A DNA stretch of 64,000 nucleotides, from assembly GCA_022072515.1 (NCBI GenBank), contig JAJVHT010000069.1:30910-94909 (forward strand), read 5' to 3'. The position numbers were made by a program, and so were the translations under genes. Numbering within the stretch: position 1 is the first letter of the stretch; each line of letters begins with the position of its first letter. Under the pieces are notes generated by a model. The model saw only the letters and a list, made by a program, of their open reading frames with translations. It was not told the origin of the DNA and made no database searches. Shown here piece by piece: positions 27,611 to 59,035 of the stretch. This stretch comes from a bacterium (lineage in GTDB: Bacteria; Zhuqueibacterota; Zhuqueibacteria; Zhuqueibacterales; Zhuqueibacteraceae).

Positions 27611-27623
27611 ACCACATTCCTCC

Positions 27624-28400: not shown

Positions 28401-28469
28401 CTTCGTTCGCAAGATTGAATTCGAAATTACACTCTTCAATTCACCCTTTTTACCGCTTGGCCAAAGCGT

Positions 28470-31578: not shown

Positions 31579-33057
31579 TTATTTCCGAATCATGGTGATC
31601 CAATCCTGAACCACCGAAAACGCCAAAGCCATGTTTTTGATGCTCACCGTTTCACGCCGCTTGAGCGCAGCGTGAATTTTCCCCAAAAGAAAAGCCGCTA
31701 CATACCACGCCAACCGCCGGCGGTCAGCGGCCCACGGCACTTGCCGCTGGTAACTCGTCAAATAAAGCTCGATGCTTTCATCCACCGGCGCGGCGGGAAT
31801 GGCATCACTTACTTTTAAAAACGCCAACGAAGCCACGAATTCCGCCACATCATAGAGCGGATCGCCGCAAGCAATCGAATCAAAATCAATGAGCGCCAGT
31901 GCGCCGTCCCGGCACAAAAGCTGCGCCAGCTTAAAGCTGCCGTGAATCGTCGTTTGCGGCATTTCGGCCTCCAACCAGCCAACCGGCGCTTCCAACGTTT
32001 TAACAAAATGCTCCAACTCTTCTCGCCGTTGCGGCAAAAACGGCGCAATGTCGCTCGCATCATCGCAAGCATTGAGAAACACCGCTTGCAGAGACGGCCC
32101 GCGCCGCAGTTGCACGCCGTCAATCACGATCTGATGCAGCGCCGCGAGCATGCCGGCGATTTGTTGCGGAAACGCCGTCCGCGGCAAATTCACCCAACCG
32201 GTTCGCTGCATCATGACATTGAAATCTTCACCTTCCCATGCCTGCTGCCAAACGCTGTGGGCCGCGTCGAGATACGCGATCGGCGCCGGTACATTCAGCC
32301 GCCCGTCATGACAAGCCGGACTCGCACAAATTTTTTGCAAGGCCCGATACACGTGCCAGCCTTGCCCGTCGTCATAAGTTTTGCTATAAAAAATGGGGGC
32401 CAAGCCGGTCGTTGTGGACGCGCTCAGCTCCAGCGTGAAACGCAACACACAGCGTTTACCGGGCATGTATTTAATTTTGTCGATAACCACGTGCTGGCAC
32501 GTGACGCCGTCCGGCAAACCCAAACCGGCACGATTGGCTTCGATTTGTTGCATGATCCACGCCGGCTCCAAAAGTTGGCCGAGATAAGGCAGCTTGCGAT
32601 CATACGGAAACGCGTACAGCACCATATCCATTTCCGGCCACACGTTGACGGGTTTCCAAAAACCGCAGCCCGGCCAGGTGTCCGGCGTTTCACGCCAATC
32701 CTTGCCGCGCTTGCAGGGCATTTGGGCCTGAAACCACATCGCATAATTTTTCTGCCGATGCTCGCGATCACGGCAACGCACGGTGTAGGTGATCTCACAA
32801 CTCTTTCCCGGCTTGTGGTAAACTTTGCCGACGGCGACAGTGTCGATCAACAGCGCATGGCCGGGATACTCCCGCTGAAAAAACTCCTGCAAGGCCGGTT
32901 TCATCCACACCGCATCCAGCGCGCGCGCCAACTGCGGCAGATGTTCATCCTGTCCGTCCTGCTTTTTGCGCTTGCGCGGCAAGCGCGCGGCGCCGGTGTT
33001 TTTAGGGTCGTCTGCAAGCATGCTTTGTTGTATTTCGTTGGGTTGGCATCTCTGCAA
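31579..33057 (-). CDS. Kinase-fold (APH/CotS-like) protein K1, long form with duplicated N-lobe; catalytic Asp replaced
   Basis: 492 aa. The C-lobe reads TIHGSFKLAQLL...LIDFDSIACGDPLYDVAEFVASL. Two N-lobe-like units: VGKVYHKPGKSCEITY and IDKIKYMPGKRCVLRF...IFYSKTY. The track start 33057 is TTG; an alternative ATG is at 33021. Confidence 0.7.
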   Translation of the reverse strand: MQRCQPNEIQQSMLADDPKNTGAARLPRKRKKQDGQDEHLPQLARALDAVWMKPALQEFFQREYPGHALLIDTVAVGKVYHKPGKSCEITYTVRCRDREHRQKNYAMWFQAQMPCKRGKDWRETPDTWPGCGFWKPVNVWPEMDMVLYAFPYDRKLPYLGQLLEPAWIMQQIEANRAGLGLPDGVTCQHVVIDKIKYMPGKRCVLRFTLELSASTTTGLAPIFYSKTYDDGQGWHVYRALQKICASPACHDGRLNVPAPIAYLDAAHSVWQQAWEGEDFNVMMQRTGWVNLPRTAFPQQIAGMLAALHQIVIDGVQLRRGPSLQAVFLNACDDASDIAPFLPQRREELEHFVKTLEAPVGWLEAEMPQTTIHGSFKLAQLLCRDGALALIDFDSIACGDPLYDVAEFVASLAFLKVSDAIPAAPVDESIELYLTSYQRQVPWAADRRRLAWYVAAFLLGKIHAALKRRETVSIKNMALAFSVVQDWITMIRK

Positions 33058-33163
33058 TAAGGAACAGTCGCAAATTCCAACACCAGGGCGATACTGAAAC
33101 GCTGATCCTTATGGCCGCTGTGCATGAGATTCCGTTCGAACAGAGATGCAACCTCATTCCAAC

Positions 33164-34279
33164 TCAGTTTAAAGTTTCCGGCATAGCGGCAAACTTCTCC
33201 GAAGTTTGCCGCAACATCGCCGTGAATTTCGCGAGCACGCATTCGGCGGAATAATGTTCCAGCAAATAAGCGCGCGGCGAATAGTTCTGATACGTATCCA
33301 GCAATTCCGCCAGTCCGAGATGAAACTCCGCCGGCGTTTTGATCAAACCCGCCGCCGGGCCGACATAACGGCTGCCGGCCCACAATTCCGCATTCACCAG
33401 CACCGGCACATTGGCGGCCATGTATTCCAAAATCGCGCGCGGCGCGGCATCCAACGTGGCGCACATCACGCCGATTTTTGCCTGATTCACATAACGATTC
33501 ACTTCCGCCTTCGGCACTTCGCCGGTAAAATGCACCGCGAGATTCAGCTCGCGCGCCAATTTCTCCAACTCGGCGCGATTGCCTTTACGATCGTCGCCAA
33601 TGCAAATACAACGCAACTGGCGCTCCGGCAATTTCGCCATCGCCCGCAACAACAATTCATGATTTTTGCGTTCGCGCAAATAAGCGACGTAGCAAATGTC
33701 ATAAATTTTTTCTCCGGGCAGCGGATAATGCGTGGCACGGTAATCAATGAGCTTGTCCCAAATCGCACAGTGGATTTGCGGGCAAACCCGCTTGACTTCT
33801 TCCACCTCCCAAGCTTCATCGACTAAACAAAGATCGTAACGCGGCAAGGCTTTGATTTTTTCCGGCCGCCAATCTTTCGAGTAAACCATTTTAAAACTGC
33901 CGGGGCAGCAGTCGAAAATTTGCGCCAGATATGGCGGATAATCCGGGCCTTCAACCCAAATGATATCGGGTTGTCCGGTGCGGCGAATATACCGGGGCAG
34001 CTCTTCCGAAGTCAAATCTTCCCGACCGGGAAACAGCAACACCGGCAACTGCCCCGGCACCGCGACTTCCTGAAACGCCTGATTCCAAAATTTCCACTCC
34101 TCGGCGCCGGTGAGAAAGTGCCGTTGCTGCAAGCCCATAATGATATTTTTCGAACTGCTGCCGGCCTTCGCTGAGATTTTCATCTGTTCCAGCGCCGCGC
34201 CATCCAAAGCCGGCGCGGCTTGATTTTCCCGCGTAAAGACAGTGCTTTCTGTTTTGGTGCGAACAAATGCCAATCGCAT
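33164..34279 (-). CDS. GT-B fold glycosyltransferase (GT4-like C-terminal half)
   Basis: C-terminal pattern: RKNHELLLRAMAKL...LRCICIGDD...HFTGEVP...ATLDAAPRAILEYMAANVPVLV. ATG 34279 avoids overlap with the upstream gene (stop at 34302). Confidence 0.55.
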   Translation of the reverse strand: MRLAFVRTKTESTVFTRENQAAPALDGAALEQMKISAKAGSSSKNIIMGLQQRHFLTGAEEWKFWNQAFQEVAVPGQLPVLLFPGREDLTSEELPRYIRRTGQPDIIWVEGPDYPPYLAQIFDCCPGSFKMVYSKDWRPEKIKALPRYDLCLVDEAWEVEEVKRVCPQIHCAIWDKLIDYRATHYPLPGEKIYDICYVAYLRERKNHELLLRAMAKLPERQLRCICIGDDRKGNRAELEKLARELNLAVHFTGEVPKAEVNRYVNQAKIGVMCATLDAAPRAILEYMAANVPVLVNAELWAGSRYVGPAAGLIKTPAEFHLGLAELLDTYQNYSPRAYLLEHYSAECVLAKFTAMLRQTSEKFAAMPETLN

Positions 34280-34301
34280 CGGGGCAACAATTCCTTTGAG
34301 C

Positions 34302-35678
34302 TTAAATCGCCTGCAGCCAATCTGCCAAGACTTCAAAAATCGCGTCGCGTTTGGCCATGGCCGGCCTGTCCAAATTTTTCATCGTGTCGTGCATTTTGCT
34401 CAGCAGCGCCGAAATCGCATAAAAAGCCAACCGCGCCGGCGGCAGTTTCCAAGGCACATGCCGTTCATAGCTTTTTATAAACAACGCTGCCGCTTGCGCC
34501 AAACGCTGCCGCGAATGGCCGGCGGTGAATTCAAGATACTGCAACGAGGCCATGAACTCCGCCACATCATACAGCGGATCACCCAACGCCACGGCGTCGA
34601 AATCTACCAACGCCAACTCGTGCTGGCGCGCGACAAATTGCTCGAGGCGAATCGCACCGTGAATCGGGGTGACCGGCGACTCGGCGGCGCCGGGCAACAA
34701 CATTTCCCGCCGCGCTTTGAGGCGGGCCAAAATTTCATCGAGATGTGGCTGGCATGGCGGCAACAGCCATCCCAGCATTTGCGCGTCTTCCTCCGCCGAA
34801 TCAAAAGCGCGCTCGAGTGTGTTCGCCGGCGGCAACTGCTCGCACTGGCTTTGATGAAAGCTCGCGATGCCGGCCGCCAAACGCGGAAATAATTCTTCCC
34901 AATCGGCAGTATCAAGCTGCGCCATGAGCGGGCGGCCTTCCCACGGCGTTTGCCACAACGTATTTGCCGCTTCGAGATGCAGCAACGGCCGCGGAATGTC
35001 GATGGCGTGCCGGAGGCGCGCATAAACCTGTTGCAAGACTTCATAATGAAACCGGCTCATGCCATCGCTGTAGGTCTTGCTAAAAAACGAAAGCGCGCGT
35101 TCCTCTCCAGCGGAATTTTGCAAACGGGCGTGATAGCGCAACACGCAACGCTTGCCCGGCATGTATTTCACGCGCACAAAATTTGTCTGCACGCCCCGCC
35201 AATTTCCCGCCAATCCGAACGCCGCGAGATTCGCTTCGATGTGCGCCTGCACAAAACCGGGATCGGCGGCTTTGACCAATCCCGCCATGTCAGGATCATT
35301 GGGAAACGTCCACACCACCATTTCGAGATCGGACCACAGGCTCACCGCTTGCCAAAGGCCGTTTTGCAAATTTCCGGCGGCGCGCGCGGTTTCATAGTGC
35401 CGGCGTGCTTGGCCGGCCCGCACCAGTTTGCCCAAGAACCATTGGTCCATTTTTTCCCCGCGCGTGTTGCGCAGATTCAGACGATACAGCAGCCGGCAGC
35501 GTTTGCCGAGCCGATGTTGGATCCGCTCGAGGACGCAGCTTTCGACGCGTGCTTCCAGCCGCGCCAGCGCCGCGTGAAATTTCTCCGCGAAGATCGGCGT
35601 CATCGCGTCCGCATCGGTTACAGTGGCGAGAGCCGGCAACCGGTCATCTCGCCAGATTTTTTCTGCCAGCGGTTGCAT
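34302..35678 (-). CDS. Kinase-fold protein K2, long form with duplicated N-lobe; catalytic Asp replaced
   Basis: 458 aa. PIHGAIRLEQFV...LVDFDAVALGDPLYDVAEFMASL. N-lobe units: LERIQHRLGKRCRLLY...WFLGKL and VRVKYMPGKRCVLRY...SFFSKTY. The ATG directly abuts the TAA of K3. Confidence 0.7.
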   Translation of the reverse strand: MQPLAEKIWRDDRLPALATVTDADAMTPIFAEKFHAALARLEARVESCVLERIQHRLGKRCRLLYRLNLRNTRGEKMDQWFLGKLVRAGQARRHYETARAAGNLQNGLWQAVSLWSDLEMVVWTFPNDPDMAGLVKAADPGFVQAHIEANLAAFGLAGNWRGVQTNFVRVKYMPGKRCVLRYHARLQNSAGEERALSFFSKTYSDGMSRFHYEVLQQVYARLRHAIDIPRPLLHLEAANTLWQTPWEGRPLMAQLDTADWEELFPRLAAGIASFHQSQCEQLPPANTLERAFDSAEEDAQMLGWLLPPCQPHLDEILARLKARREMLLPGAAESPVTPIHGAIRLEQFVARQHELALVDFDAVALGDPLYDVAEFMASLQYLEFTAGHSRQRLAQAAALFIKSYERHVPWKLPPARLAFYAISALLSKMHDTMKNLDRPAMAKRDAIFEVLADWLQAI

Positions 35679-37076
35679 TTAAAAGAGTCCCTCACTTCCT
35701 GCGAGTATTGCCGCCGCCCAGTTCAACAATTGGTCGACTTTTTCGGCATGATTCTCTTTCGCCAAACGAATGCATTTCTTCGCTTGTTTGCCCAACAGAT
35801 GCGCCGCGGTTTGCCAGACCAACACGTCGTTTGGCAAACCCCACGGCGCCGCCGCCGCATAAGCCCGGCAAAATTGCCGAATCGCCGCGCGGCTGCGCGC
35901 GGGCGAAAGCCCGTCTTTGACTGACTCTCCTTTCAACGGCAAATACAACAGATGCGCCACGAAACTCGCCACATCGGCAATCGGATTGCCGAGAACGAAA
36001 TCATCAAAATCGATCAAAGCCAATTTGCCGTCGACCACGAGAAATTGCGAAAGCCGAAACGCGCTGTGAATCAGCGCCGGCGGCAAAGACGGCAAGCCGT
36101 CATATTTTTCCTGCAACGTGCGCGCCAGGGCTTCGACACGCGGGCGGTAGGCCGGATTGAAATTGCCCAAAATTTCCACGGCTTCGGCAGCTTCCGCGAT
36201 GACGTGCTCATCGCCGCGCGCCGGCAAGCCGGCGATTTGGCATTGATGGATGCCGGCCAGCCCGGCGCCGATCTGCGCGGCCACACGCTCAAGATCAAGC
36301 GCGCTGAGATGATCGTCCGCATTCTTGCCTTGCAAACCGCGCACGAAAGTGGTATTCATTTCCGCCGCAAAAAACAACGGCTCCGGAATCAACAACCCGC
36401 CGGCTTGGCAAACCGGCGCCTGCCACAACGCTTGCATGGTTTTGAAAATCAATTCGCCGTTGGTTTTCGGATTGAGCATTTTGCTAAAGATCACCTGCGG
36501 CGCCGCGCCCTCGAAAAGCAACCGATGGCGCAATGTGCAGCGGTCGCGGGGAACGTATTTAATGCGCTTGGTAAAAATCCGGCGCAATCTGGCCTCGGGC
36601 GGCAGATGCAAATACGGCCATAACGATTGCACGACTTCCTTAAAATTTTCGCGATTGGTCAACCGGTGCAGATGCCGCAGCTTGGGGTCATTGGGATAAC
36701 CCCACAAGATCATGTTCAACTGCGGCAAAAAATGCAAAGCCGGCAACACCTTGGGTTGAAACAGCGCGTGGCGGAGCGCCTTGGCATAATTCGCGGCGGC
36801 CTCGTTCTGCGGCAAATGAGGCTCGACCATCGCAAAACAAAGCGGCCGCTGCATTTTGCCTTTTGCCAGATCTTTGACGACCAGTTGATAATTCAAATGA
36901 CACTTTTTGCCGGGTTCATAACGCATTTGATTCAGCAACACATGGTGCAGCTCCAACCGGCCATCGCCAAAGCCGGGAAGCTCGCGCTGAAAAATTTCCT
37001 TCATCGCCAGCGTATTGGTAACGACCGCCAATTGCGGGAAAACCGTGTCATCGTATTTTTCGGCAAATTTGAGCAT
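35679..37076 (-). CDS. Kinase-fold protein K3, long form with duplicated N-lobe; catalytic Asp replaced
   Basis: 465 aa. LIHSAFRLSQFL...LIDFDDFVLGNPIADVASFVAHL. N-lobe units: LNQMRYEPGKKCHLNY and KRIKYVPRDRCTLRH...VIFSKML. Confidence 0.7.
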   Translation of the reverse strand: MLKFAEKYDDTVFPQLAVVTNTLAMKEIFQRELPGFGDGRLELHHVLLNQMRYEPGKKCHLNYQLVVKDLAKGKMQRPLCFAMVEPHLPQNEAAANYAKALRHALFQPKVLPALHFLPQLNMILWGYPNDPKLRHLHRLTNRENFKEVVQSLWPYLHLPPEARLRRIFTKRIKYVPRDRCTLRHRLLFEGAAPQVIFSKMLNPKTNGELIFKTMQALWQAPVCQAGGLLIPEPLFFAAEMNTTFVRGLQGKNADDHLSALDLERVAAQIGAGLAGIHQCQIAGLPARGDEHVIAEAAEAVEILGNFNPAYRPRVEALARTLQEKYDGLPSLPPALIHSAFRLSQFLVVDGKLALIDFDDFVLGNPIADVASFVAHLLYLPLKGESVKDGLSPARSRAAIRQFCRAYAAAAPWGLPNDVLVWQTAAHLLGKQAKKCIRLAKENHAEKVDQLLNWAAAILAGSEGLF

Positions 37077-37116
37077 GTGTTTGAGAACCGCGTGTTTCCA
37101 ATCTGATTAACGGCAA

Positions 37117-38463
37117 TTAGGCGCCAAGCTGATCGGCAATTTTGAGCAGCCGGCTCACCAGGCTCGTATCCATGCGCTTGACGGATTTATAGACTTGGCT
37201 GGCGATCAAATGACTCGCCGCAAACCAATTGATGCGCGCCGGCGATAACGGCACGGCTGCCGCGCGATTGTACGACGCGCAGAAATCGGCTATCGTCTGC
37301 TCGGCCGCTTCCGGAGCGATTTTCCAATCGGCCTTCATTTTATAAAGATGCGCGATAAAACGGCCGACATCGTAGCCGGGATCGCCAAGGCTGGCGCCGT
37401 CAAAGTCAATGAACGCGATGCCTTTGGCCGTGGCAAAAATATGGCTGAATTTGAACGACGCGTGCACCGGCGTCACCGGGCCGGAACCGAATTGCGCTGC
37501 GGCGGCCAAAAGTTTTTCGCCGGTTTGCGCGCAACGCGCCGCATACTCCGGAAAAGTTTTACTGATCTTTTTCATCGCCTGACGCAACTCTTCCACTTGC
37601 GCCGCAACCGTTCTTTCCACCGGCAGTTGCAAAGGGATGCTGTGAAACGCCGCCAGGCGCTCGCCAATCTCCTGCGCCACCTGCGAAAAATCCGGCATAC
37701 GCTCGGCGATTTTTGCCAACGGCTCACCGGCGATCATTTCCTGCCACAGCACGTGCCGCCCGGTGTCGTAACTATACGGCTCCGGTAAAATTAAGCGGCC
37801 CTGCCGGCGCGCTGCACTTGTCCAAATTTGCTGCATGAGCGTGAACGCCTTGCGGCCTTCCGCAGGCCGATAGGCCTTGCCAAAAATCCCGGCGGCAGCG
37901 CCATCGGCCAGGGTCAGATGAAAAAAATAACCACACCGCATACCGGGAACATACTTGCTTTGCACCGCGCGAATGGTGACCGGCGCCTGGCGCAGGCCGA
38001 ATTTTTCCGGCGCGGCCCGCATGTCGGCCAAAACTTTTTCGGCATCGGCCATCTTCGCCACTCCCGGCACTTTCGGATCATTGGGATAAGCCCACAGCAC
38101 CGTCAACCAGTCCGGCAGGTAAACCACTGCCGGCCCCCATGCCGGCGGCGTCCAGCTTTTCTGTTGTTGGCGCGCAAAAATTTTTTCAGCGCGCGCCGCC
38201 CGCCGGAACAACTTTCCGTAAAAACGCTGTTGCCCAAGCTCGCGCTGCTGGCGGTCACGGATGCTGGCCGTAAACAAAATCACACAAGCCGCACCGGGGC
38301 GATAATTCAACTGCTCGATGGCGCAATTGGCCACGTGCAGATCACCCGCGGCAAACGCCGGCCCCAAATATTGATTCAGCTTTTGCGCCAGTGTCGCCGT
38401 TTCCGCCATTTCGCGCAATTGCGGAAACTCACAATCGGCGGGAATGTTTGCCAGCTTGGCCAT
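37117..38463 (-). CDS. Kinase-fold protein K4, long form with duplicated N-lobe; catalytic Asp replaced
   Basis: 448 aa. PVHASFKFSHIF...FIDFDGASLGDPGYDVGRFIAHL. N-lobe units: IEQLNYRPGAACVILF...RFYGKLF and VQSKYVPGMRCGYFF...GIFGKAY. Confidence 0.7.
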   Translation of the reverse strand: MAKLANIPADCEFPQLREMAETATLAQKLNQYLGPAFAAGDLHVANCAIEQLNYRPGAACVILFTASIRDRQQRELGQQRFYGKLFRRAARAEKIFARQQQKSWTPPAWGPAVVYLPDWLTVLWAYPNDPKVPGVAKMADAEKVLADMRAAPEKFGLRQAPVTIRAVQSKYVPGMRCGYFFHLTLADGAAAGIFGKAYRPAEGRKAFTLMQQIWTSAARRQGRLILPEPYSYDTGRHVLWQEMIAGEPLAKIAERMPDFSQVAQEIGERLAAFHSIPLQLPVERTVAAQVEELRQAMKKISKTFPEYAARCAQTGEKLLAAAAQFGSGPVTPVHASFKFSHIFATAKGIAFIDFDGASLGDPGYDVGRFIAHLYKMKADWKIAPEAAEQTIADFCASYNRAAAVPLSPARINWFAASHLIASQVYKSVKRMDTSLVSRLLKIADQLGA

Positions 38464-38514
38464 CCGGTATTGTTCCAGTTCAGACTTTAACCCGCAAGCG
38501 GGGTTCGTTCTGTG

Positions 38515-40470: not shown

Positions 40471-40494
40471 GTTGGGTTTCGGAATCTATCCTTA

Positions 40495-42426: not shown

Positions 42427-42503
42427 GAATCCGATTCCAGTTAAAATCCGTTGTGGCGCTGGCTACCGCGCCGCATGACCGGCGCAAAGTTTTGCCGCTC
42501 CAT

Positions 42504-43499
42504 TCACGCGGCGCTTTTCAAGAAAGCGCTGCCGGCCTCGAGAAGTTGCCGCACCTGTTGTCGCCAATCGGCAACCGCTGGCGCGCGGGTGCAAATCACC
42601 GCTCGGCGCAAATATGCAAAAGCCTGATAGGCCTGCAATCCAGTGAGCATCAGTTGAGGCCGGCGAGCATTATAAGCTTCCAGGAAAGCGTTCTGTAATT
42701 TTTTGCTGCGTGAGCCAAAATGAACTTGCAACGTGACCAAAAAATTGGCAATATCCAGCGCCGGCGTCGAAAGGCATAAGCCGTCGAAATCAATAAAAAA
42801 GGCGCGGTCGGCTGCGAGAAAAATTTGCGCAAGATTCAAATCGCCGTGCACTGGGCACACCGGCGCCGGCGATTCCCTTTCCTCCTGCACCAAACGGATC
42901 AGCAGCGTCTCGACCAATGGCGCGATTTCCGGGTATGCCGCGCTCAACACTTCCGGGCCGGGATGGCAATATTTCTTGAGATGGTCGTCGAGGGTTTTCT
43001 TTTCGCCGACCGCGGCCGTCACCTGATGCAACGTCGCCAAATTTTGAGCGACACGGCGCATCGCCACCACCAGCGTTTCCGGCTCTGCCAGCTCAGATAA
43101 AGCCTGGCCGGGAACAGCACTTTGCACGAGCATGCCCAACTCCGGCTCATACGCCAAAGGCTCCGGCATGCCTAACGGCGCGCCGCCGGCGTGCGCCCCG
43201 GCGCCATCATCACCGGGCGCCGCTTGCCAAAGCTGCCGCCAATTGGCAAAAATGCTTTCACCGCGATTTTTGCGATACATCTTGCCGATGAGGCGGCGCG
43301 GGCGCGCCGGTTTCCCGGCGAACCACAAGAGGTATTCAATCACGCAACGCTTGCCCGGCGTATATTTTAAAACACGGCTGCGAACTTGCCGAAGAGAGTT
43401 CTCTCGCAGCGCCGAATTCCATTGTGCCGAGGCAAACCAGGACAGCATTGCCTCGTCGTCGAGGGCGCGTTTGAGGCCGGGCAGCTTGCGATCATTCAA
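42504..43499 (-). CDS. Kinase-fold protein K5, short form with intact HGD catalytic motif
   Basis: 331 aa. One N-lobe (RVLKYTPGKRCVIEY...LIGKMY), PVHGDLNLAQIF and FIDFDGLCLSTPALDIANFLVTL. The track start is TTG, overlapping the upstream TGA by 4 nt. Confidence 0.7.
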   Translation of the reverse strand: MNDRKLPGLKRALDDEAMLSWFASAQWNSALRENSLRQVRSRVLKYTPGKRCVIEYLLWFAGKPARPRRLIGKMYRKNRGESIFANWRQLWQAAPGDDGAGAHAGGAPLGMPEPLAYEPELGMLVQSAVPGQALSELAEPETLVVAMRRVAQNLATLHQVTAAVGEKKTLDDHLKKYCHPGPEVLSAAYPEIAPLVETLLIRLVQEERESPAPVCPVHGDLNLAQIFLAADRAFFIDFDGLCLSTPALDIANFLVTLQVHFGSRSKKLQNAFLEAYNARRPQLMLTGLQAYQAFAYLRRAVICTRAPAVADWRQQVRQLLEAGSAFLKSAA

Positions 43500-43960
43500 A
43501 AGCCTTCGATCTCCGTTTTGTCGTTCACGATAATCGTGAACCCCAGAACTTCGAGCGTTTTCGTGGCCGCATCGATTTTGGTGATGCCGCCTTGCAATTC
43601 TTCGATATTAAAACCTTTGGATTCCTGCATTTTAACCTTGACCGGCGCAAAACCCGTGGCTTCCGAAAAAGGGCCTTTGAGCTTGACGAGGTCGCCCGCC
43701 TTCAGGTTCTTCAACGTGATAGGCTGCCGTTGCACGTTTTTAATCTCCACACTGCCGTTCAGCACAAAATCACGATTCATCAGACGCATAGAATTCTTTT
43801 CCACCTCGAGACTTTGAATTTTGCCTTCCAGCGCGCATTCTTCATCGCCGGGCTTGATGCTGACTTCGAGTGCGGAAAAATTATTGCCGTCGGCAGGTTT
43901 GCCCTTCACCTTGACCCGTTGTCCCACTTTGAGATTATTGAACCCGATGGTTTTCTCCAT
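43496..43960 (-). CDS. Cytoplasmic DUF5666-like beta-rich protein D2
   Basis: 154 aa, no signal peptide, GGAG upstream of the ATG. Repeated units: LKVGQRVKVKGKPADGNNFSALEV, LKAGDLVKLKG, GGITKIDAATKTLEVLGFTIIVNDKTEIE. The family name is assigned from memory of the motif pattern and is unverified. Confidence 0.55.
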   Translation of the reverse strand: MEKTIGFNNLKVGQRVKVKGKPADGNNFSALEVSIKPGDEECALEGKIQSLEVEKNSMRLMNRDFVLNGSVEIKNVQRQPITLKNLKAGDLVKLKGPFSEATGFAPVKVKMQESKGFNIEELQGGITKIDAATKTLEVLGFTIIVNDKTEIEGF

Positions 43961-44096
43961 AAAAATTCTCCACTGATGAGTTATTTTATTTTTAATCGAA
44001 CATCTTTTTTATAGCCAAACACCGACACAACTTTTCAGAATGGATGCAATGCCATCACCGCGGCCAATCTGCCGGCGGTGATAGGGGCGCGCCGGC

Positions 44097-44606
44097 TTAG
44101 ATGGGAATGTACGGCGTTGGGGCTTCCCGTGCTTCTTCCGGCGTTTCACCCAGCTCAATAACGGTTTTGCCTGACATCAAAATTTTTATCCCGTTCACCC
44201 AAAAAATTTTGCGTTCGTGGTCGATTTTATCGATCACCCCCTGCACCTGTTCAATATTGAATTCCCGGGTTTCTCGCAATTTTATTCGTTTGGGCACAAA
44301 GCCGGCGGCGGGCGTGTGCCGCCCTTTGAGCTTAATCATATCCCCCGCTTCCAAGGCCACTGCATTCAACGGCGCGCCTTCCTCGTCTTTCATTTCCAGA
44401 TCATCCGCTATCAAAATCTCCTGATCACAAAGCCGCAGCACTTTGCGGCGGCGATCGACGCTCTGAATCGGGCATTCGATTTCACTGTCTTTGAGCGCCG
44501 GTTCCAAGCTAATTTCCACGGCCAGAAATCCGGCTCCATCCCGGAATTTGCCGGTAATCTTGACACTGTGACCGGCTTGCAAGTCGCTAAACTCAATCAG
44601 GCTCAT
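44097..44606 (-). CDS. Cytoplasmic DUF5666-like beta-rich protein D1 (paralog of D2)
   Basis: 169 aa, collinear with D2: LQAGHSVKITGKFRDGAGFLAVEI, LEAGDMIKLKG, GVIDKIDHERKIFWVNGIKILMSGKTVIE. ATGA overlap with the K6 stop. Confidence 0.55.
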   Translation of the reverse strand: MSLIEFSDLQAGHSVKITGKFRDGAGFLAVEISLEPALKDSEIECPIQSVDRRRKVLRLCDQEILIADDLEMKDEEGAPLNAVALEAGDMIKLKGRHTPAAGFVPKRIKLRETREFNIEQVQGVIDKIDHERKIFWVNGIKILMSGKTVIELGETPEEAREAPTPYIPI

Positions 44607-45718
44607 AACGTGCTCAGTGGGGTAGGTTCCATTTCTTCCTCAACGTCCGCCGGATCTTCATCCGCGTCAAAATCAAACAGATAACGCTCGGACGACCAGC
44701 CGTGGCGCTGCATTTCTTCAATACACTTGACGCCGGTTTCCACCATGCGTTGGACGCGCCGCCGCCAACCTTCTTCTTGCAAGCGCAAACATTTACAAGC
44801 CCGGCGCAAATTGGTTAATCCTTCGTAGAGCAAGATGCGGTGCGCCACATCGCGCTCGATGCGGGAAAAATATTCATCCAAAAATACGTTGATCAAGTCG
44901 ACCATGGCGGGATTTTTCTTAATCTTGCCGCGCAAAAACACCAGCATGTTACCAAGATCGGAAGCGGGATCACCATAGGCGAGGGCGTCAAAATCGATCA
45001 GCCAGGCGTTGCCGTTTTCAACGTGAATCTGGCCGAGATGAAAATCGCCGTGGATGGGCGTCAGCTTGGCGTCACGAATGAGGCCGGCCTCGATTTTGTG
45101 GGCGGTTTGCACCATGTACTCGATGCGGCTTTCCAATTCCGGGCAAGCCAGCTCGAGAAACGGATAACGCGGATGGCAGCGTAATAAATGATCCTTGACG
45201 AGAAAAGGCTGGTCCAAATTAAGCTCGCACCGATGCAGCTTGGCAATGGTGCGGGCGAGCAGCCGAAAATGCGCCGGACTCGAAGCTTGTTTGACCAAAG
45301 TTTTCAACGGCACGCCCGGCACTTCTTCCTGGAAGAGCATGCACAAGCCGGTGGAAAAGGAGAGCGGCTCGGGAATGCTGATGCCGTCCGCGGCGTTGCG
45401 GGCGAACCCATTTTTCCACAATTGCTGCATGGTTTCAAAAACATGCTCGCCGCGTCTGGCTTTATAAACCTTGCCGATAACACGCCATTCGTGGCGCTGC
45501 TGGGTCGCCAAATTCACCGCGTCGACACGATAGCGAATCACGCAGCGCTGATTGCGCCGGCGAATGATTTCAATGCCGACCGCACGGACTTCGAAATTCT
45601 CACCAAAGTGATTACAAACCAGGGGGGCAAACGTTTGGCACATCCGTTGGGGGTCAAGAGCGATGTCCAACGTGTACAACTTGTCGTGTAAAACCGATGC
45701 GGAAGATGCAGTAGACAT
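44603..45718 (-). CDS. Kinase-fold protein K6, short form with intact HGD catalytic motif
   Basis: One N-lobe (IEIIRRRNQRCVIRY...VIGKVY), PIHGDFHLGQIH and LIDFDALAYGDPASDLGNMLVFL. The track start 45733 is TTG; ATG 45718 is preceded by GAAGGG. Confidence 0.7.
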   Translation of the reverse strand: MSTASSASVLHDKLYTLDIALDPQRMCQTFAPLVCNHFGENFEVRAVGIEIIRRRNQRCVIRYRVDAVNLATQQRHEWRVIGKVYKARRGEHVFETMQQLWKNGFARNAADGISIPEPLSFSTGLCMLFQEEVPGVPLKTLVKQASSPAHFRLLARTIAKLHRCELNLDQPFLVKDHLLRCHPRYPFLELACPELESRIEYMVQTAHKIEAGLIRDAKLTPIHGDFHLGQIHVENGNAWLIDFDALAYGDPASDLGNMLVFLRGKIKKNPAMVDLINVFLDEYFSRIERDVAHRILLYEGLTNLRRACKCLRLQEEGWRRRVQRMVETGVKCIEEMQRHGWSSERYLFDFDADEDPADVEEEMEPTPLSTL

Positions 45719-45870
45719 GACGCTACCCTTCAAAGCTGAATTTCGACGACACGTTTTGAATTAACGCTGCAACGCTTCCGCGTTGCATTCCGTTTACTTT
45801 GTATCTTCAAGCACTCACCCTCCAGACGCCAATCAGCAACCGCAAACGTCCGGACGGTTTTACGAATTTT

Positions 45871-47232
45871 TCAAGCAACAGGTACAGGTTGCGTGGCATC
45901 GGCGCCGCGTGGCGAAACTGCCGGCGCTGCCGCAGGGTGTAATTCAGCGTTTGTAAATGTACCGCGCCGTAGCGCCGTACGCAGAAGCACGCCGATTTTT
46001 TCAATATTCCGAAGCGCGTCAAATTCACGCTCGACTTTGGCGCGCCCTGCCGCACCGAGCCGCCGGGCCAACTCCGGATGCCGCAGCAAAGACTCGAGCG
46101 CTACGGCCACCGCTGCAGAATTTTTTTCCGGCGTCAACAAGCCGCTGACACCGTGTTCCACCAATTCCGGAATGCCGGAAATCGCCGTGGAAACGACCGG
46201 AATGCCCATGGCCATGGCTTCCACCAAAACATTGGGAATGCCGTCACGGTCGCCGTCATTTTGCACTTCACAAGCCAGCGCAAAAACGTCCGCCCGCCGA
46301 TAATATGACCATAACTCGGTTTGCGACATTTGCGGCAACAGCGTGACCTGATTTTGCAAACCCAAGTCCATGATTAATTTTTCCAGCTCGTTTTTCAACG
46401 GCCCGCCGCCAATGAGATAACTCTGAAATTCTAATCCCGCCTGCCGCAGTTGCTGCAACGCCTGCACGAGCACGGGAAAACCTTTTTTCGGCACGAAACG
46501 TCCAATCGACAGAATAACCGGGCAAGCAGCGTTCGCTATTGGGGCGCGTTCCGGCTTGAATAATTCCAGATCGTTGCCATGGTAAACCCGGAACACTGGC
46601 GCGTCCGCGCCGGCAACACGCGCCAAATAAGCGCGGTTGAATTCTGTGCAGGTGACGACGAACTGCGCCCGGCGAATTTTTTCGCGCAAAAAATCGTGCT
46701 CCTGCAAATAAATATCTTTGGCATGCGCGCTGAAGCTGTAGCCCATGCCGGTCAACCAACTCGCGAAATAAGCCACCGTAGTCGGACCGTGGCTAAAGTG
46801 CGCATGCAAATGCGCGACATTCGTTCCCGGCAAACTTTTTTGCACGAGATACGCCGCCTGCGCAAAGCGTTTGATCGTGGATGAACTGCGCTGGCGCAGG
46901 CTGCGTCCCGAAGCAAAGCAAAACGCCCGCCAATAACAGCCCGGCCGATTCCACCACAAACGGAGATTGGCGCCGATAAACGAGAAAAAGAACCGCCAAA
47001 AATAATCCGGAATGTAAGTCACCTGAGCGCGCACCCGGCGCACGCTGTCATGCACCTTGCTCTCGCCGGGATTGCGCATGGCAAAGATGTGCAGCGGTTG
47101 GCCGAGTTGTTCGAGCAATAAAATCTCGTTGACAATGAACGTTTCGGAAAGGCGCGGATAGCCTTTCAGAATGAAACCGACTTTACTTGCCCCGCGGGGG
47201 CGGGAGTTGGGTTGCGCTTCGACAGGCGGCAT
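45871..47232 (-). CDS. Glycosyltransferase family 4 (WcaL-like)
   Basis: 453 aa. The N-terminus (KVGFILKGYPRLSETFIVNEILLLEQLG) is WcaL-like. The C-terminus (DGDRDGIPNVLVEAMAMGIPVVSTAISGIPELVEHGVSGLL) carries the GT4 Ex7E region. Confidence 0.8.
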   Translation of the reverse strand: MPPVEAQPNSRPRGASKVGFILKGYPRLSETFIVNEILLLEQLGQPLHIFAMRNPGESKVHDSVRRVRAQVTYIPDYFWRFFFSFIGANLRLWWNRPGCYWRAFCFASGRSLRQRSSSTIKRFAQAAYLVQKSLPGTNVAHLHAHFSHGPTTVAYFASWLTGMGYSFSAHAKDIYLQEHDFLREKIRRAQFVVTCTEFNRAYLARVAGADAPVFRVYHGNDLELFKPERAPIANAACPVILSIGRFVPKKGFPVLVQALQQLRQAGLEFQSYLIGGGPLKNELEKLIMDLGLQNQVTLLPQMSQTELWSYYRRADVFALACEVQNDGDRDGIPNVLVEAMAMGIPVVSTAISGIPELVEHGVSGLLTPEKNSAAVAVALESLLRHPELARRLGAAGRAKVEREFDALRNIEKIGVLLRTALRRGTFTNAELHPAAAPAVSPRGADATQPVPVA

Positions 47233-47424
47233 GATTGTACGAGCCGGATGTTAGTTCAAAAGTGATCGCTGTTACCGCGCATTTTTCATTATCGGAATTA
47301 TCGCGAAGAGTAAAATATTTTTCCGCGATTTTACTTTCGGCGGATAATCATTCAATATTAGTTTGGCGTATCTCGCAGAGAATGCCGGCGCCATCTGCTT
47401 GCCGGTTATTTATAGCACCGGGGC

Positions 47425-48627
47425 CTATGTTAATTCTGACACGCTATCATTCACGATTAAGGAAGCCACGCGGGAAGCGCCGCTTAAATCCGGCATTTGG
47501 GCTTCCGCAAAGCGCGGCGTTTTGCGCAAACGCTGCCAGATCAGCTCGGCAAAATTTTCCGGCGTCAGGCGCGTCGGATGGATCGTGCCGAACAGGCCAC
47601 GCGCGGCCATCAGACGCGAGCGCATGCTTTGTTCGGCGCTGGGACCGGCGCGGGGAACGACGATGGCGTTTTTGCGAAAATGCAGAATTTCGCTGATCGT
47701 GTTGTAGCCGGCCATCGAAATGACGAGATTGGCCCGCCGCAAAAAGCGCACACTGTCTTCGCCCATCCGGCTCACCGTGATCGGCAAGTTTTTGGTTTTG
47801 TGATGCAGCAGCTCACGTTGCTCTTTGCTCATAAACGGGCCGGTGGTGACGAACGCCTGGAACTTCAAATCGCTGCGCAACAAACGGGCAGCGTCGATAA
47901 ATTGATCCATAAAAAACGAGGCATCTGCGCCGCCGCCGCCGGTGACCAAAATAAACTTGCCGTCTTGCTTTGCGCGCCGCAATTTCTTTTTCGGCCCCGG
48001 CAGGGGCTCGACGTTTTCGCGGCAGACATAACCGCAATACTGCGCTTTGCCCAACAACGAGGCGGGAAATTCATATTGCGCGATCACATCGAACAAATCA
48101 GCGCAGCCGTAAATAAACACGGCGTCATAAAACGCATCGATGGCCTCAAAAGCGCCTTCCGTTTTCCATTGCCGGCGAATCACTTCCGGCGCCCCTAAAA
48201 TATCCCGAATGCCCAAAATCACTTTAGTATGCGGGCTGTGTTGCCGCAAAATTTGCAAAGGTTCGGCCAATTCACCCAATGCGCCATGCGGCATATGGTC
48301 CACCAAAAAAACGTCGGGCTGATAGCTGATGGCAACATTGCGAATAATGTCGGAGCGAATCGCCAATACCTCCCGCTCGCTCATGGGCAGCCGGTCCGGC
48401 CGCCAAACGCCGGTATCAACCTTGATGATAGTTGGGATCTTGATGAAATCACAATTGGACGGCAGTTTAAAGAAGGGGGCTACCGGGGAATCCGCGATAA
48501 TGAGACACGAAGCCTGGGTGCGGCGCTTCTTGATCTGCGTACAGATATTGAGGTTACGTCGCAAATGTCCCAAGCCGAAGCCGTCCTGGGAATAAATCAA
48601 AACCCTGGTTGCTGATCCGTGTGCCAT
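47425..48627 (-). CDS. GT-B glycosyltransferase, MurG/GT28-like (COG4671-type predicted glycosyltransferase)
   Basis: 400 aa. RVLIYSQDGFGLGHLRRNLNI at the N-terminus; VISMAGYNTISEILHFRKNAIVVPRAGPSAEQSMRSR resembles a GT28 C-terminal domain. Confidence 0.65.
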   Translation of the reverse strand: MAHGSATRVLIYSQDGFGLGHLRRNLNICTQIKKRRTQASCLIIADSPVAPFFKLPSNCDFIKIPTIIKVDTGVWRPDRLPMSEREVLAIRSDIIRNVAISYQPDVFLVDHMPHGALGELAEPLQILRQHSPHTKVILGIRDILGAPEVIRRQWKTEGAFEAIDAFYDAVFIYGCADLFDVIAQYEFPASLLGKAQYCGYVCRENVEPLPGPKKKLRRAKQDGKFILVTGGGGADASFFMDQFIDAARLLRSDLKFQAFVTTGPFMSKEQRELLHHKTKNLPITVSRMGEDSVRFLRRANLVISMAGYNTISEILHFRKNAIVVPRAGPSAEQSMRSRLMAARGLFGTIHPTRLTPENFAELIWQRLRKTPRFAEAQMPDLSGASRVASLIVNDSVSELT

Positions 48628-48735
48628 AAGCCGTCAAGTGCAAGTTGTAAACACGGTACATCAAATAAAGAATGCGGTTGACTCCTTGACAACCGCAGGT
48701 GGCCATGCGTCGAATGGGTGAGGCAGAAGAAATAA

Positions 48736-49959
48736 TTATGATGCAACTTTAAGCTCAACCGCTGGCGACGAGCCGCTGAGCGCTCGAATCCTTTCTGCAA
48801 GTTTTGCAAAGCCATCCAACGGAATGCCTTCATAAAACGGCTTCTGTGCCAAGCGCGGTCCGTTGAACAGCGTCTGGTTGATGAATTCCTGCAAAACGGC
48901 GGGGTGATACTCTTCCGGCGACACGAGCTTGAGCAAACCCAGCTCTTGCAATAAGCGCGCGCGGCAGAAATTCGCCGGTTGCTGCTTGAGGTTGGGAACC
49001 GCCAACGCGGCTTTACGATGCGCCAGAATTTCACAGATCAAATTATACTCGCCCGCGCCGATCACCAGACTGGCAAAGCGCACATATTGCAAAGTGTGCT
49101 TGCCAAACCGTTGAAACATCACATTGGGCAGCTTTTGCGCGCGCTGGGCAAAGCTGCGTTTTTCATGCGGGCCAATTGCCGGGCCCGCGACGACAAAACT
49201 TTGAAACGCGATACCGTCATTCTTTTTTTCCAAAAAGCGCAAATACGCGTCAATCATGGCGCTATCGCCGGCGCCGCCCGCCGAGCTTAACATCACCAAC
49301 GGCAAATTGCGGTTCATTTTCGCCACGTTTTCACTAACCTTGCGTGACGGCATGCTGAGACGCGCCAGATAGCCGGTATAAAAAATTTTGCCCGCGACCG
49401 CCGGCGGAAGCTGATACTTTTCGGCCAGATTAAAGACCCGCGACGCGCCATAAACAAAAATTTCATCCGCGCACTGCGTTAAGACCTCGAGAATATCGTT
49501 GCGGGCCCATTGTTGCATAACCCATTCCGGCGCCCCCAGCGTATCGGACAAACCCCAAATAATTTTAGCGGTTGCCAACTCATCCCGCACGCAATCCACG
49601 ATCCGCCGCATTTCATCCGGCTGCTCCAATAAGCTCTCATCCAGCATCACCACATCCGGGCGAAAAGTCTTAATGGCGCTCTGCGCAATCTTGCGGCGAA
49701 GGCGCAGCTTGTTATCATGCTCGATATTGAGGCCGCCGAACAACTGGCCTGCCTGATCTTTAACCTCAAGAACAGGAAGATGCACATAATCAACTCTCTC
49801 GGCCAACCGAAACCGGCCCACGGTCGATAGATCCGTCAGCACCAGAATCGAACAACCTTCCAATGCTTTGGAGAGGGAAGCCGCGATGTTGAGCGTGCGC
49901 GATGTCTGTCCCAATCCTCGGCTGTCATTACAATACATGAGTATGCGCAGCGAGGACAT
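48736..49959 (-). CDS. GT-B glycosyltransferase, MurG/GT28-like, paralog
   Basis: 407 aa. LRILMYCNDSRGLGQTSRTLNIA and VIGAGEYNLICEILAHRKAALAVP. Same architecture as 47425-48627. Confidence 0.6.
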   Translation of the reverse strand: MSSLRILMYCNDSRGLGQTSRTLNIAASLSKALEGCSILVLTDLSTVGRFRLAERVDYVHLPVLEVKDQAGQLFGGLNIEHDNKLRLRRKIAQSAIKTFRPDVVMLDESLLEQPDEMRRIVDCVRDELATAKIIWGLSDTLGAPEWVMQQWARNDILEVLTQCADEIFVYGASRVFNLAEKYQLPPAVAGKIFYTGYLARLSMPSRKVSENVAKMNRNLPLVMLSSAGGAGDSAMIDAYLRFLEKKNDGIAFQSFVVAGPAIGPHEKRSFAQRAQKLPNVMFQRFGKHTLQYVRFASLVIGAGEYNLICEILAHRKAALAVPNLKQQPANFCRARLLQELGLLKLVSPEEYHPAVLQEFINQTLFNGPRLAQKPFYEGIPLDGFAKLAERIRALSGSSPAVELKVAS

Positions 49960-51795: not shown

Positions 51796-51975
51796 GGTGT
51801 CAACCTCGATGAATAAGCGCCTCGCTGCACCGACACGCTTAGTTGTACTGTCATTCCAGCAGGTTCGCGCAAAATGAAATGGTCAGGATTTATCCGGCGT
51901 AGAAGTAAATATGTACAACGCAATCTCGCAATCAACCGGTGGCGAGAAATCGTTTCAAGATTTATGTCTTGCGTC

Positions 51976-52701
51976 TCACGCTTCCGGCATTTCTTGAAAT
52001 AAATCTTTCAACTGTTGAATCTCTTTGCCCACAAGCTGACGCAAAATTTTCCCGTCTTGCATGTGAATAAGCCGGCGCGCCCATTTGGCTTTGTTCATTT
52101 CGTGGGTCACCAAAACGACGGTCGTGCCCTTCGCGTTCAAACCTTGCAAAATTTCCATGATTTCGTGGCCGGTTTTGGTGTCGAGGTTGCCTGTCGGTTC
52201 ATCCGCGAAAATAATCTGCGGCTTGGTTACCAGGGCGCGCGCAATCGCCACCCGCTGGTTCTCGCCGCCGGAAAGCTCATTGGGACGGTGATTGGGGCGG
52301 TGTCCCAGGCCGACGGCCTTCAACATTTCGAGGCAGAGCTCCCGCCTTTGTGCCCGCTCGATGCCCATGTAAATCAACGGCACTTCGACATTTTCCACGA
52401 CGGTAAGCTGCATAATTAAATTGAAGGCTTGAAACACAAAACCGACTTTACGATTGCGCAGGCGGGACAACTCCACGTCGTCAAGCTTCTCCACCGGCGT
52501 GCCATCAAGCGAGTAGGTGCCGCCGGAAGGTCGATCCAAACAGCCCAGCAAATGCATGAGCGTGGACTTGCCGGAGCCTGACGGCCCCATGATCGCCAGG
52601 AATTCACCTTTCTCGACATTCAAAGAGACGCCGCGCAGCGCTTTCACTACCGTCTCACCCATCACATATTCCCGCCGCAGCTCTTTTACCTCAACCAGCA
52701 T
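51976..52701 (-). CDS. ABC transporter ATP-binding protein (MacB/LolD-type)
   Basis: [44 protein letters not shown] 52701 is preceded by AAGGAG; the track start 52704 is TTG. Confidence 0.9.
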
Positions 52702-52752
52702 CAATTTCTCCTTACGGAATTTTATTCCGCCTTAAATTTCCCGTCTTGCCAA

Positions 52753-53982: not shown

Positions 53983-54020
53983 AAATTCACCTGATATGGA
54001 TTCGCCTGCAATGTCCCGAC

Positions 54021-55619: not shown

Positions 55620-55662
55620 TACCTCGGTGTAACTAACAAAGCGGAGCGTTCATTATTTTATT

Positions 55663-55772: not shown

Positions 55773-55775
55773 ATT

Positions 55776-59033: not shown

Positions 59034-59035
59034 CG

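Follow-up and report, generated by a model that had tools for sequence, protein, structure and literature searches.

A conserved block of kinase-fold, glycosyltransferase and exporter genes within a biosynthetic island of a Zhuqueibacterota bacterium

What kind of pathway would bring six kinase-fold proteins together with glycosyltransferases and a pair of ATP-binding cassette (ABC) exporters in a single gene block? The question was raised by positions 31579–49959 of a 64,000-nucleotide stretch of DNA (hereafter the window) from an uncultured bacterium of the phylum Zhuqueibacterota (GenBank assembly GCA_022072515.1, contig JAJVHT010000069.1). An earlier note on this DNA had read the genes as a dedicated multi-kinase machine acting on an exported glycoconjugate or protein. 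All 14 open reading frames (ORFs) that it listed were present on the minus strand, with the coordinates and order given there, which in the direction of transcription is GT28a, GT28b, GT4, K6, D1, D2, K5, ABC1, ABC2, K4, K3, K2, GTB and K1. The set proved to be conserved, but the count of six kinases was overstated, as only K5 and K6 keep the catalytic aspartate. Taking gene content, motif states, conservation, fusions and neighbourhood together, we infer, as a tentative answer, that the block may be the part of a specialised-metabolite or glycolipid pathway that handles the glycosylation, phosphorylation and export of an anionic glycoconjugate.

Kinase-fold proteins and their catalytic sites

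Two classes of kinase-fold protein could be distinguished. The short class consists of K6 (44603–45733, 376 amino acids), with complete catalytic motifs, and K5 (42504–43499, 331 amino acids), both with an HGD loop. The long class (448–492 amino acids) consists of K4 (37117–38463), K3 (35679–37076), K2 (34302–35678) and K1 (31579–33057, the last gene of the block), all without the catalytic aspartate. Profile searches placed every K protein above the gathering score of the APH family PF01636 (23.2 bits), with 35.6 bits for K1, 42.7 for K2, 52.6 for K3, 56.0 for K4, 49.8 for K5 and 58.4 for K6. Identities among K1–K4 were 26–33% (E 1e-40 to 6e-76), K5 and K6 shared 30% identity (E 6e-41), and the comparisons between long and short proteins gave E-values of 1e-11 to 1e-24. 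On these sequence comparisons K1–K6 are true paralogs, with similarity far beyond chance, as the earlier note had recognised.

The AlphaFold2 (AF2) model of K4 (pLDDT 93.5) agreed with this assignment and displayed a bilobal kinase-like fold. A search of the PDB yielded 147 matches at E ≤ 1e-3, the top 50 of which were all APH-, choline-kinase-, methylthioribose (MTR)-kinase- or maltokinase-type. The best Foldseek match was maltokinase 4u94, aligned over the full length (482 columns), followed by TvaE, ComG (8agy), PsiK, APH(4), homoserine kinase, MTR kinase and LxmK. Ahead of the full kinase, the model contains an extra N-terminal domain (approximately residues 1–155, beta-beta-beta-alpha-beta-beta), in which three long antiparallel strands (42–54, 60–70 and 75–85) and helices precede the core. 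The long proteins are built from this cap, an intermediate region and the C-lobe, and hhalign comparison revealed the cap (44–100) as an internal duplicate of the kinase beta1–beta3/alphaC region (161–211; probability 90%, E 1.5e-6). The cap is absent from K5 and K6. An N-terminal cap has been described in the maltokinase/glucosamine kinase branch (PMC6520443).

The C-lobe motif that had been described as common to the six proteins stood in part. The DFD element was found in all of them, but the helix motif in K5 is TP..DI and not [DN]P..D[VIL]. Likewise, the histidine of the reported H-x-x motif is present throughout, but this notation hides the split between HGD in K5 and K6 and HGS, HGA, HSA and HAS in K1, K2, K3 and K4, respectively. 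The beta3 lysine K226 and D391-F392-D393 (K1 numbering) are invariant in K1–K6, and across 31 K-long sequences the ATP/Mg ligands K196, D353 and D355 are invariant together with the loop histidine. The catalytic aspartate of the H-x-D loop is present in K5 (VHGDLNLAQ...FIDFD; orthologs HGDL[NG]L[ASDTK]Q) and K6 (IHGDFHLGQ...LIDFD; orthologs HGDFH[LMA]GQ) and is replaced in K1–K4 and their orthologs. The corresponding loop is IHGSFKLAQ in K1 (orthologs HG[ST]FK[LI]AQ, with Thr in some), IHGAIRLEQ in K2 (orthologs H[GCR]A[ICLF]R[LVI]EQ), IHSAFRLSQ in K3 (orthologs H[GS]AFRL[ST]Q) and VHASFKFSH in K4 (H[AG]SFKFSH in nearly all orthologs and HGSFKSSH in one paralog of locus L017), with Lys or Arg two residues past the replaced position in all four. 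Each orthogroup has its own replacement, which is kept across some 20 loci. Among the top 140 family representatives of an exhaustive search, the catalytic position was D in 57, A in 41, S in 24 and T in 16. This pattern of orthogroup-specific, conserved loss beside invariant other motifs is a stable alternative state of the active site and not random decay.

The K6 loop is almost the same as that of the glucosamine kinase SjGlcNK (6hwj, VHGDFHVGQ...VVDFD) and of maltokinase 5jy7. The loop HGD[FL]H[LV]GQ with DFD/DFE is exact in K6, partial in K5 (HGDLNLAQ) and not found in K1–K4. In SjGlcNK, D300 of the D-x-H catalytic-loop motif lies at the canonical catalytic-aspartate position and touches the substrate with H302; the two Mg ions are bound by Q305 and by D317 in the DFD loop. 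GlcNK is encoded in operons with a GT1 enzyme within biosynthetic clusters (PMC6520443). The likeness of the block to maltokinase (Mak/Pep2) and SjGlcNK comprises the top full-length structural match of K4, the HGDFHLGQ...DFD loop of K6 and Gln instead of the usual Asn as Mg ligand. On the other side, overall sequence similarity is marginal, K1–K4 differ by the missing aspartate, and Mak/GlcNK is a single cytoplasmic enzyme, whereas the block has six paralogs coupled to an exporter and does not contain the Mak partners TreS and GlgE. The block proteins are new members of known superfamilies, and the Mak/GlcNK sugar kinases are their closest characterised enzymes.

Profile comparisons were also made with other kinase families. 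No K protein matched Kdo/WaaP (PF06293) at E ≤ 0.01, and an assignment to the lipopolysaccharide (LPS)-core kinases WaaP and KdkA was rejected. The spore-coat family CotS/CotSA (TIGR02906) was rejected as well, with 22.5 bits for K5 and 20.1 bits for K6 against a cutoff of 172.7 and no match for the others. LxmK of class V lanthipeptides (NF038156) was the best NCBIfam match of all six proteins, but at 29–40 bits against 315 and over the catalytic core only; with no lyase-like protein in the block and no precursor-like ORF upstream, it was likewise rejected. No match to a resistance-family equivalog was obtained. At least 744 homologs of the actinobacterial long kinase were found, all named only 'phosphotransferase' or 'hypothetical', and the K-long profile reached 1,740 representative clusters (50% identity) at E ≤ 1e-30.

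Partner genes and conservation of the block

The genes are tightly packed, as had been noted. The intergenic gaps in the direction of transcription are 108, 192, 137, -4, 136, -4, 77, 24, 51, 40, 0, -35 and 106 nt; K3 and K2 meet without a gap at 35679/35678, and overlaps of 4 nt were confirmed at 44603–44606 and 43496–43499. GTB probably begins at an internal Met, so that little of its 35-nt overlap with K2 is left. A scan for promoters and terminators gave no useful signal, with 37 terminator-like sites where 36.4 would be expected by chance, and no convincing internal terminator in the block. Upstream of GT28a lies an AT-rich non-coding stretch of 600 nt with no precursor-like or conserved small ORF, and Rfam at gathering thresholds returned three tRNAs only and no riboswitch. 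The 14 genes form one conserved module, which is probably co-transcribed. Ten block proteins were compared with PADLOC-DB for anti-phage defence without a match at E ≤ 0.01, and a defence-system assignment was rejected. K4 is identical to NCBI ALAOOOJD_01400 and D2 to ALAOOOJD_01404, both from an unclassified 'bacterium' metagenome-assembled genome (MAG), and the closest relatives are MAGs of candidate division KSB1 (Zhuqueibacterota).

Four GT-B glycosyltransferases had been claimed. GT4 (45871–47232), GTB (33164–34336) and GT28b (47425–48627) were above their Pfam cutoffs, but GT28a (48736–49959, the first gene) fell just below (Glyco_tran_28_C 21.2 bits against 22; Glyco_trans_1_3 21.3 bits, also just below cutoff), though its paralogy with GT28b is clear (27% identity, E 4.5e-54). 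GT28b reached 42 bits with PF04101 (cutoff 22) through its C-terminal GT28 domain only. Its 34.7 bits with the MurG equivalog TIGR01133, against a cutoff of 250, indicate that it is not MurG; GT28a gave no match to this model. In the PDB, the profile of the GT28-like family came closest to MurG and to small-molecule glycosyltransferases of GT1 type (YjiC, UGTs, OleD/OleI), at E ~1e-7. Orthologs of GT28b with 51–80% identity occur at related loci in other genomes (designated by L numbers; L003–L010, L014, L016 and L029–L032). GT4 is EpsE/WcaL-like, with 129.9 bits for Glycos_transf_1 and a full-length alignment to NCBIfam EpsE at 188.7 bits against 400, and it is 37–40% identical to the GT4 of actinobacterial operons. 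GTB is a GT4-type enzyme with a divergent N-terminal half (Glycos_transf_1 69.3 bits, residues 212–316 only), and it accompanies K2 and K1 in L001, L003, L004, L006, L011, L014, L015 and L029. Kinases and glycosyltransferases alike are soluble proteins, most of them basic (pI 8–9.7), which fits membrane-peripheral enzymes or anionic ligands.

The exporter pair was found as described. ABC1 (40495–42426), a half-size type-IV (MsbA-like) exporter with ABC_membrane (147 bits) and ABC_tran (124 bits) domains, is 55% identical to ABC2 (38515–40470), a half-transporter with the same domains and its presumed heterodimer partner. No peptidase domain is present on either protein. The best matches of the pair were MsbA and MsbA-related models at 418–439 bits (425–439 bits for ABC1, below the cutoffs of 602 and 780), and PglK-type models were matched too. 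Against the MsbA equivalog TIGR02203 (cutoff 602), the two proteins scored 418.6 and 425.5 bits and did not reach the cutoff.

The two proteins described as DUF5666-like, D1 (44097–44606) and D2 (43496–43960), could both be placed above the PF18914 cutoff of 27 (30.2 and 52.2 bits, respectively) and are 38% identical. Neither has a signal peptide, hydrophobic leader or membrane segment, and both are predicted to be cytoplasmic. The AF2 model of D2 (pLDDT 93.5) is all-beta, with tandem small beta-barrels, and no PDB match was obtained below E 1e-2. The nearest structures were the OB-like PilY2 and CusF, and since these are generic OB-like barrels only, no function could be inferred from them. 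Only 49 homologs of the family were found, all of the same type, and no conserved Ser/Thr patch or cluster occurs in the D1/D2 family. Some D2 orthologs (P0131 and P0143) carry a C-terminal tail of short repeats rich in Arg, Gly, Glu, Asp and Pro, e.g. RGERGDRGERPDRG, and D2 of the window is without such a tail. A third DUF5666 protein (55776–56423, 55.8 bits) outside the block has a signal peptide, read from its translation, unlike D1 and D2, which suggests that DUF5666 proteins act on both sides of the inner membrane.

That the block is a real conserved unit and not a chance assembly was supported by its occurrence elsewhere. With the patterns used, a scan of 185,579 species representatives (one genome per species) yielded 22 loci, and more were obtained through contig look-ups. 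The gene order recurs with small variations in L003–L010, L014–L016, L021 and L029–L032, and its carriers include KSB1, Calditrichia and MAGs labelled 'Cytophagia', with at least 12 other lineages in all. A MAG labelled Myxococcales (L013) contains the ABC and K4-K3-K2-K1 part, and the K4-K3-K2-GTB-K1 half stands apart from the exporter half in L001 and L011. In L008, L009, L016 and L017, GTB-K1 is swapped for two other GT4 genes and a divergent kinase of 505–519 amino acids (e.g. HGTFRLNH); this exchange downstream of the K2 ortholog indicates that the 3' end of the block is modular. A reduced form is found in Actinomycetota, including Actinopolymorpha alba, Nostocoides sp. F2B08, Dermatophilaceae and others, as a compact operon of GT28-like, APH, APH, APH, GT4, APH, ABC, APH and APH genes with unrelated flanks and no DUF5666 genes. 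Most kinases of the compact operon keep the catalytic aspartate and one is without it.

The wiring of the kinases to the exporter and GT-B enzymes, of which the earlier note had spoken, was supported by gene fusions with the exporter and with GT4. In A. alba (L025, 6573–10004) an ABC exporter is fused to a kinase in a protein of 1143 amino acids, and the independent contig L026 confirms the fusion. P0291 (1076 amino acids) joins ABC_membrane and ABC_tran domains to a K4-type kinase without the aspartate, which parallels the adjacency of ABC2 and K4 in the window. A K4-type domain is joined to a K1-type domain in P0280 and an Asp-less to an Asp-containing domain in P0368, while the ORF at 2306–4810 of L008 is a continuous GT4-K6 fusion. 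These fusions argue that kinases, GT4 and exporter work in physical contact.

The surrounding biosynthetic island

The block is not free-standing but lies in a minus-strand island of roughly 50 kb, which the earlier note did not consider. The island extends from a tRNA cluster at 59035–59373 down to approximately 7984 and holds genes for halopyrrole formation, nonribosomal peptide synthesis, sulfation, GT2 enzymes and a MacAB-TolC pump. Its position inside a biosynthetic island makes a role in specialised metabolism likelier than a housekeeping function. The upstream border is formed by three tRNA genes (Met-CAT, Lys-CTT and Lys-TTT), followed by an aspartyl-tRNA synthetase gene (59453–61222). 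From this border the first genes are those of 3'-phosphoadenosine 5'-phosphosulfate (PAPS) supply, an ATP sulfurylase and an adenosine 5'-phosphosulfate (APS) kinase (56938–58786). The third DUF5666 gene follows, with genes of a TolC-like channel, an HlyD-like adaptor and a MacB-type ABC composed of an ATPase and an FtsX permease. Together these five genes (50560–56423, directly upstream of the block) encode a candidate outer export route.

Directly after the block lies a metallophosphoesterase gene with TIG and CBM96 domains and a type IX secretion system (T9SS) tail (29148–31466), which has an ortholog in L004. A T9SS-tailed phytase-domain protein is encoded just upstream of GT28a in L029 (2086–3477) and also in L030. 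Such secreted phosphoesterases could act on an exported phosphorylated product. The idea that six kinases correspond to the six inositol hydroxyls, suggested by the phytase neighbour in L029, found no further support and was set aside.

The downstream biosynthetic genes (7984–29048) were annotated with Pfam and NCBIfam. They begin with MbtH and a type II thioesterase (27624–29048); in the 192-amino-acid MbtH protein (28470–29048) the MbtH domain takes up the first 52 residues only, with no assignment for the 140 residues beyond. Next come a T9SS-tailed protein with trypsin-like and F5/8 type C domains (25769–27640), a sulfotransferase gene and a single nonribosomal peptide synthetase (NRPS) module of 918 amino acids (22220–24976). 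The module has the order C*-A-PCP (PCP, peptidyl carrier protein), and its condensation domain matches the C-terminal half of the profile only. A serine hydroxymethyltransferase gene, two GT2 genes and two sulfotransferase genes follow, so that three sulfotransferase-family genes are present (16854–18547 and 24973–25734). The distal part encodes an O-methyltransferase, a stand-alone amino-acid adenylation enzyme (13617–15188), a Na/H exchanger in mid-cassette (12072–13538), two CmlS-like FADH2 halogenases (9256–10599 and 10641–11927) and a PigA/RedW-like L-prolyl-PCP dehydrogenase (7984–9138, 441 bits against a cutoff of 500). Judged by their family assignments, the dehydrogenase, halogenases and adenylation enzyme (7984–15188) are a halopyrrole cassette, for which a separate PCP gene was not found. 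The distal end is taken up by two large ORFs, one of 849 amino acids (5293–7842) without a Pfam match and one of 853 amino acids (2206–4767) with a C-terminal GDSL lipase domain only.

Parts of the island accompany the block in other genomes. Orthologs of downstream genes stand directly against the kinase block in L001, L007, L011, L014, L015 and L031/32: MbtH, thioesterase, sulfotransferase and NRPS genes come directly after K1 in L014 and L015, halogenases lie ahead of K4 in L001 and L011, and a PigA-like gene follows K4 in L007. L031/32 has a sulfotransferase between K5 and ABC1 and a halogenase after ABC2. ATP sulfurylase and APS kinase genes with 80–86% identity are found beside the block in L005 and L031/32. 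L001 also contains a CMD-like gene between GTB and K1.

Proposed function and competing explanations

In the pathway tentatively favoured here, the GT-B enzymes (two MurG/GT1-like, the EpsE/WcaL-like GT4 and the divergent GT4-type GTB) would assemble a short glycan on a lipid or small molecule, working on the cytoplasmic side of the inner membrane. K5 and K6, whose beta3 lysine, HGD...Q loop and DFD loop make up the complete catalytic set of the maltokinase/glucosamine kinase branch of the APH superfamily, would phosphorylate hydroxyls of the glycoside. K1–K4 may be non-canonical partners, namely substrate-holding or regulatory subunits that pair with the active kinases and are docked on the exporter; alternatively, they may be kinases for acceptors that need no catalytic base, e.g. 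an already phosphorylated or sulfated sugar. D1 and D2 would serve as small cytoplasmic binding or carrier proteins. The ABC1/ABC2 heterodimer would export the anionic product, and in this genome MacAB-TolC with the periplasmic DUF5666 protein may carry it over the outer membrane. In KSB1 genomes, the product would probably also receive sulfate and acyl groups, the latter halopyrrolyl or NRPS-derived or, in L001, from fatty acids.

Several observations weigh against this proposal. In sequence, K6 (E 0.4–0.5 with the solved enzymes) and the K-long profile (E 2e-4) match maltokinase and glucosamine kinase only weakly, and a regular-expression search of K1–K6 did not reveal the GlcN-binding signature Q-x2-RE-x2-YA-x3-LP-x-W. 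The AF2 models cover K4 and D2 only. MacAB-TolC is linked to the block by adjacency in this window only, with no orthologs of the pump genes in related loci, most of which end before this region. The actinobacterial operon contains no scaffold-forming genes, so that a primary metabolite or an envelope lipid, rather than a natural product, may be what the core acts on, and its kinases show no 1:1 orthology with those of KSB1 (BLAST 25–90 bits, with no clear best partner). Finally, in L001 (KSB1 MAG GCA_034506095.1, 14347–17448) two LpxL-type (Lip_A_acyltrans) genes and a gene for a GT8/sulfotransferase protein follow K4-K3-K2-GTB-K1, which points to an acylated envelope glycolipid as the product in that genome.

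The explanation that survives best among the rivals is a structural surface lipid resembling the LPS core, for which GT-B enzymes would extend a membrane lipid or lipid-linked sugar, the kinases would phosphorylate it like WaaP, WaaY or KdkA, and the MsbA-like pair would flip it to the outer leaflet. The LPS-core system, with its GT4, GT8 and GT9 enzymes and MsbA flipping, shares with the block several kinase-fold and GT-B enzymes and an MsbA-like exporter, and its product is a phosphorylated glycolipid. MurG-like and WcaL/EpsE-like glycosyltransferases normally use lipid-linked acceptors. The MsbA-related and PglK-type matches of the exporter, the basic nature of the enzymes, the acyltransferase and GT8 genes of L001 and the actinobacterial operon without scaffold genes all agree with a lipid. 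However, the K proteins are APH/Mak-like and none matched PF06293, the exporter scored under the MsbA cutoffs, and genes for Kdo transferase, heptosyltransferase, a priming phosphoglycosyltransferase and Lpt proteins are missing from the window. Monoderm Actinomycetota carry the system too, and its rarity in the species scan is not what an essential envelope pathway would show. In KSB1 genomes the block lies in a secondary-metabolite-like island, where genes for halogenases, a prolyl-PCP dehydrogenase, NRPS and sulfotransferases are mixed in with it. We consider this explanation doubtful on balance.

A bolder form of the proposal, which we regard as unlikely, is that the core set (a MurG/GT1-like glycosyltransferase, GT4, about six Mak-like kinase-fold proteins and the ABC exporter) represents an unrecognised membrane-bound multi-enzyme machine, spread over several phyla, that exports a multiply phosphorylated glycoside or glycolipid. 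The Asp-less paralogs would then not be dead but would hetero-oligomerise with canonical kinases on the exporter, and would carry out base-independent phosphoryl transfer onto anionic groups (e.g. to give sugar diphosphates) or gate transport. If true, the machine would imply a new class of highly anionic exported metabolite.

Self-protection by masking is somewhat less plausible again. Here the island product would be glycosylated and phosphorylated inside the cell as a prodrug, exported by the ABC pair and re-activated by secreted phosphoesterases, and the actinobacterial operon would be a resistance module. APH-fold kinases in biosynthetic clusters are proven self-resistance enzymes, e.g. 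ComG of corramycin (PMC10996006), and K4 has ComG among its best structural matches. T9SS-tailed phosphoesterases adjoin the block, as a metallophosphoesterase in the window and L004 and as a phytase-domain protein in L029/L030, and the GT1-type OleD/OleI are among the matches of the GT28-like family. The self-resistance systems (ComG, Cph/Vph and streptomycin 6-kinase) share with the block an APH kinase beside export genes within a cluster, but they have a single fully catalytic kinase, no six-member set and no exporter fusions. Six ordered paralogs, four without the catalytic base, far exceed the needs of self-resistance; secreted phosphoesterase neighbours occur in two lineages only, and nothing indicates that the island product is toxic.

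The protein substrate that the earlier note had left as an option fared worse. In such a scheme the kinases would phosphorylate Ser/Thr residues, either in a ribosomal peptide or in the D proteins, in the manner of LxmK- or TvaE-like systems, before glycosylation and export. LxmK (class V lanthipeptides) and the TvaE-type enzymes (thioamitides) share the APH fold with the K proteins, LxmK was their top NCBIfam match, the K4 model matched leader-bound TvaE and LxmK in structure, and half-size ABC exporters are common in clusters of ribosomally synthesised and post-translationally modified peptides. The LxmK scores are nevertheless about one tenth of the family cutoff and are confined to the catalytic core, and the loop motifs resemble those of sugar kinases. 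The block has no HopA1/LxmY-type lyase, no cyclase and no ABC peptidase domain, the 600-nt upstream region holds no precursor-like ORF, and D1/D2 are conserved folded beta-barrels without a conserved Ser/Thr cluster. A peptide or protein substrate is accordingly very improbable.

A chance or selfish pile-up of resistance-type genes with no common substrate is hardly credible, for although every component family includes known resistance enzymes (APH, Mph, OleD-type and ABC efflux), the order is conserved across phyla, components are fused, the catalytic-site changes are conserved and ortholog-specific, and no resistance-family equivalog was matched.

At the level of whole systems, the nearest parallels are the LPS core with MsbA flipping, the kinases of biosynthetic clusters and WbdD of Escherichia coli O9a, a kinase-methyltransferase that phosphorylates a GT4-made glycan on the cytoplasmic side of the membrane, ahead of its export by an ABC transporter. 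WbdD is one bifunctional enzyme that terminates the chain, and its exporter Wzm/Wzt is of ABC-2 type, not MsbA-like. The likeness lies in the combination of a kinase fold, GT4 and ABC export, and the system differs in having no paralog array and no Asp-less members. The view of the earlier note that no known pathway accounts for the block was upheld: curated families of LPS-core, capsule, spore-coat and lanthipeptide systems gave no match, the window has no priming phosphoglycosyltransferase, the block has no lanthipeptide-type lyase or cyclase, and no description of it was found in the literature searched. Three of its features are without a described counterpart, namely the six-member kinase set, the prevalent Asp-less paralogs with a cap, and the fusions of kinase and exporter.

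The K proteins represent a sizeable kinase-fold family without a characterised member, in which a conserved catalytic loop without the aspartate is the rule and not the exception, and gene order and fusions tie this family to glycosyltransferases and an ABC exporter. The Asp-less paralogs offer a natural case for pseudokinase-like proteins in small-molecule metabolism. Cultured Actinomycetota (Actinopolymorpha alba and Nostocoides sp. F2B08) carry the reduced operon, which makes the question accessible to direct genetics. The product of the block could turn out to be a phosphorylated and/or sulfated glycoconjugate of a new type, made by poorly known phyla (KSB1/Zhuqueibacterota and Calditrichota).

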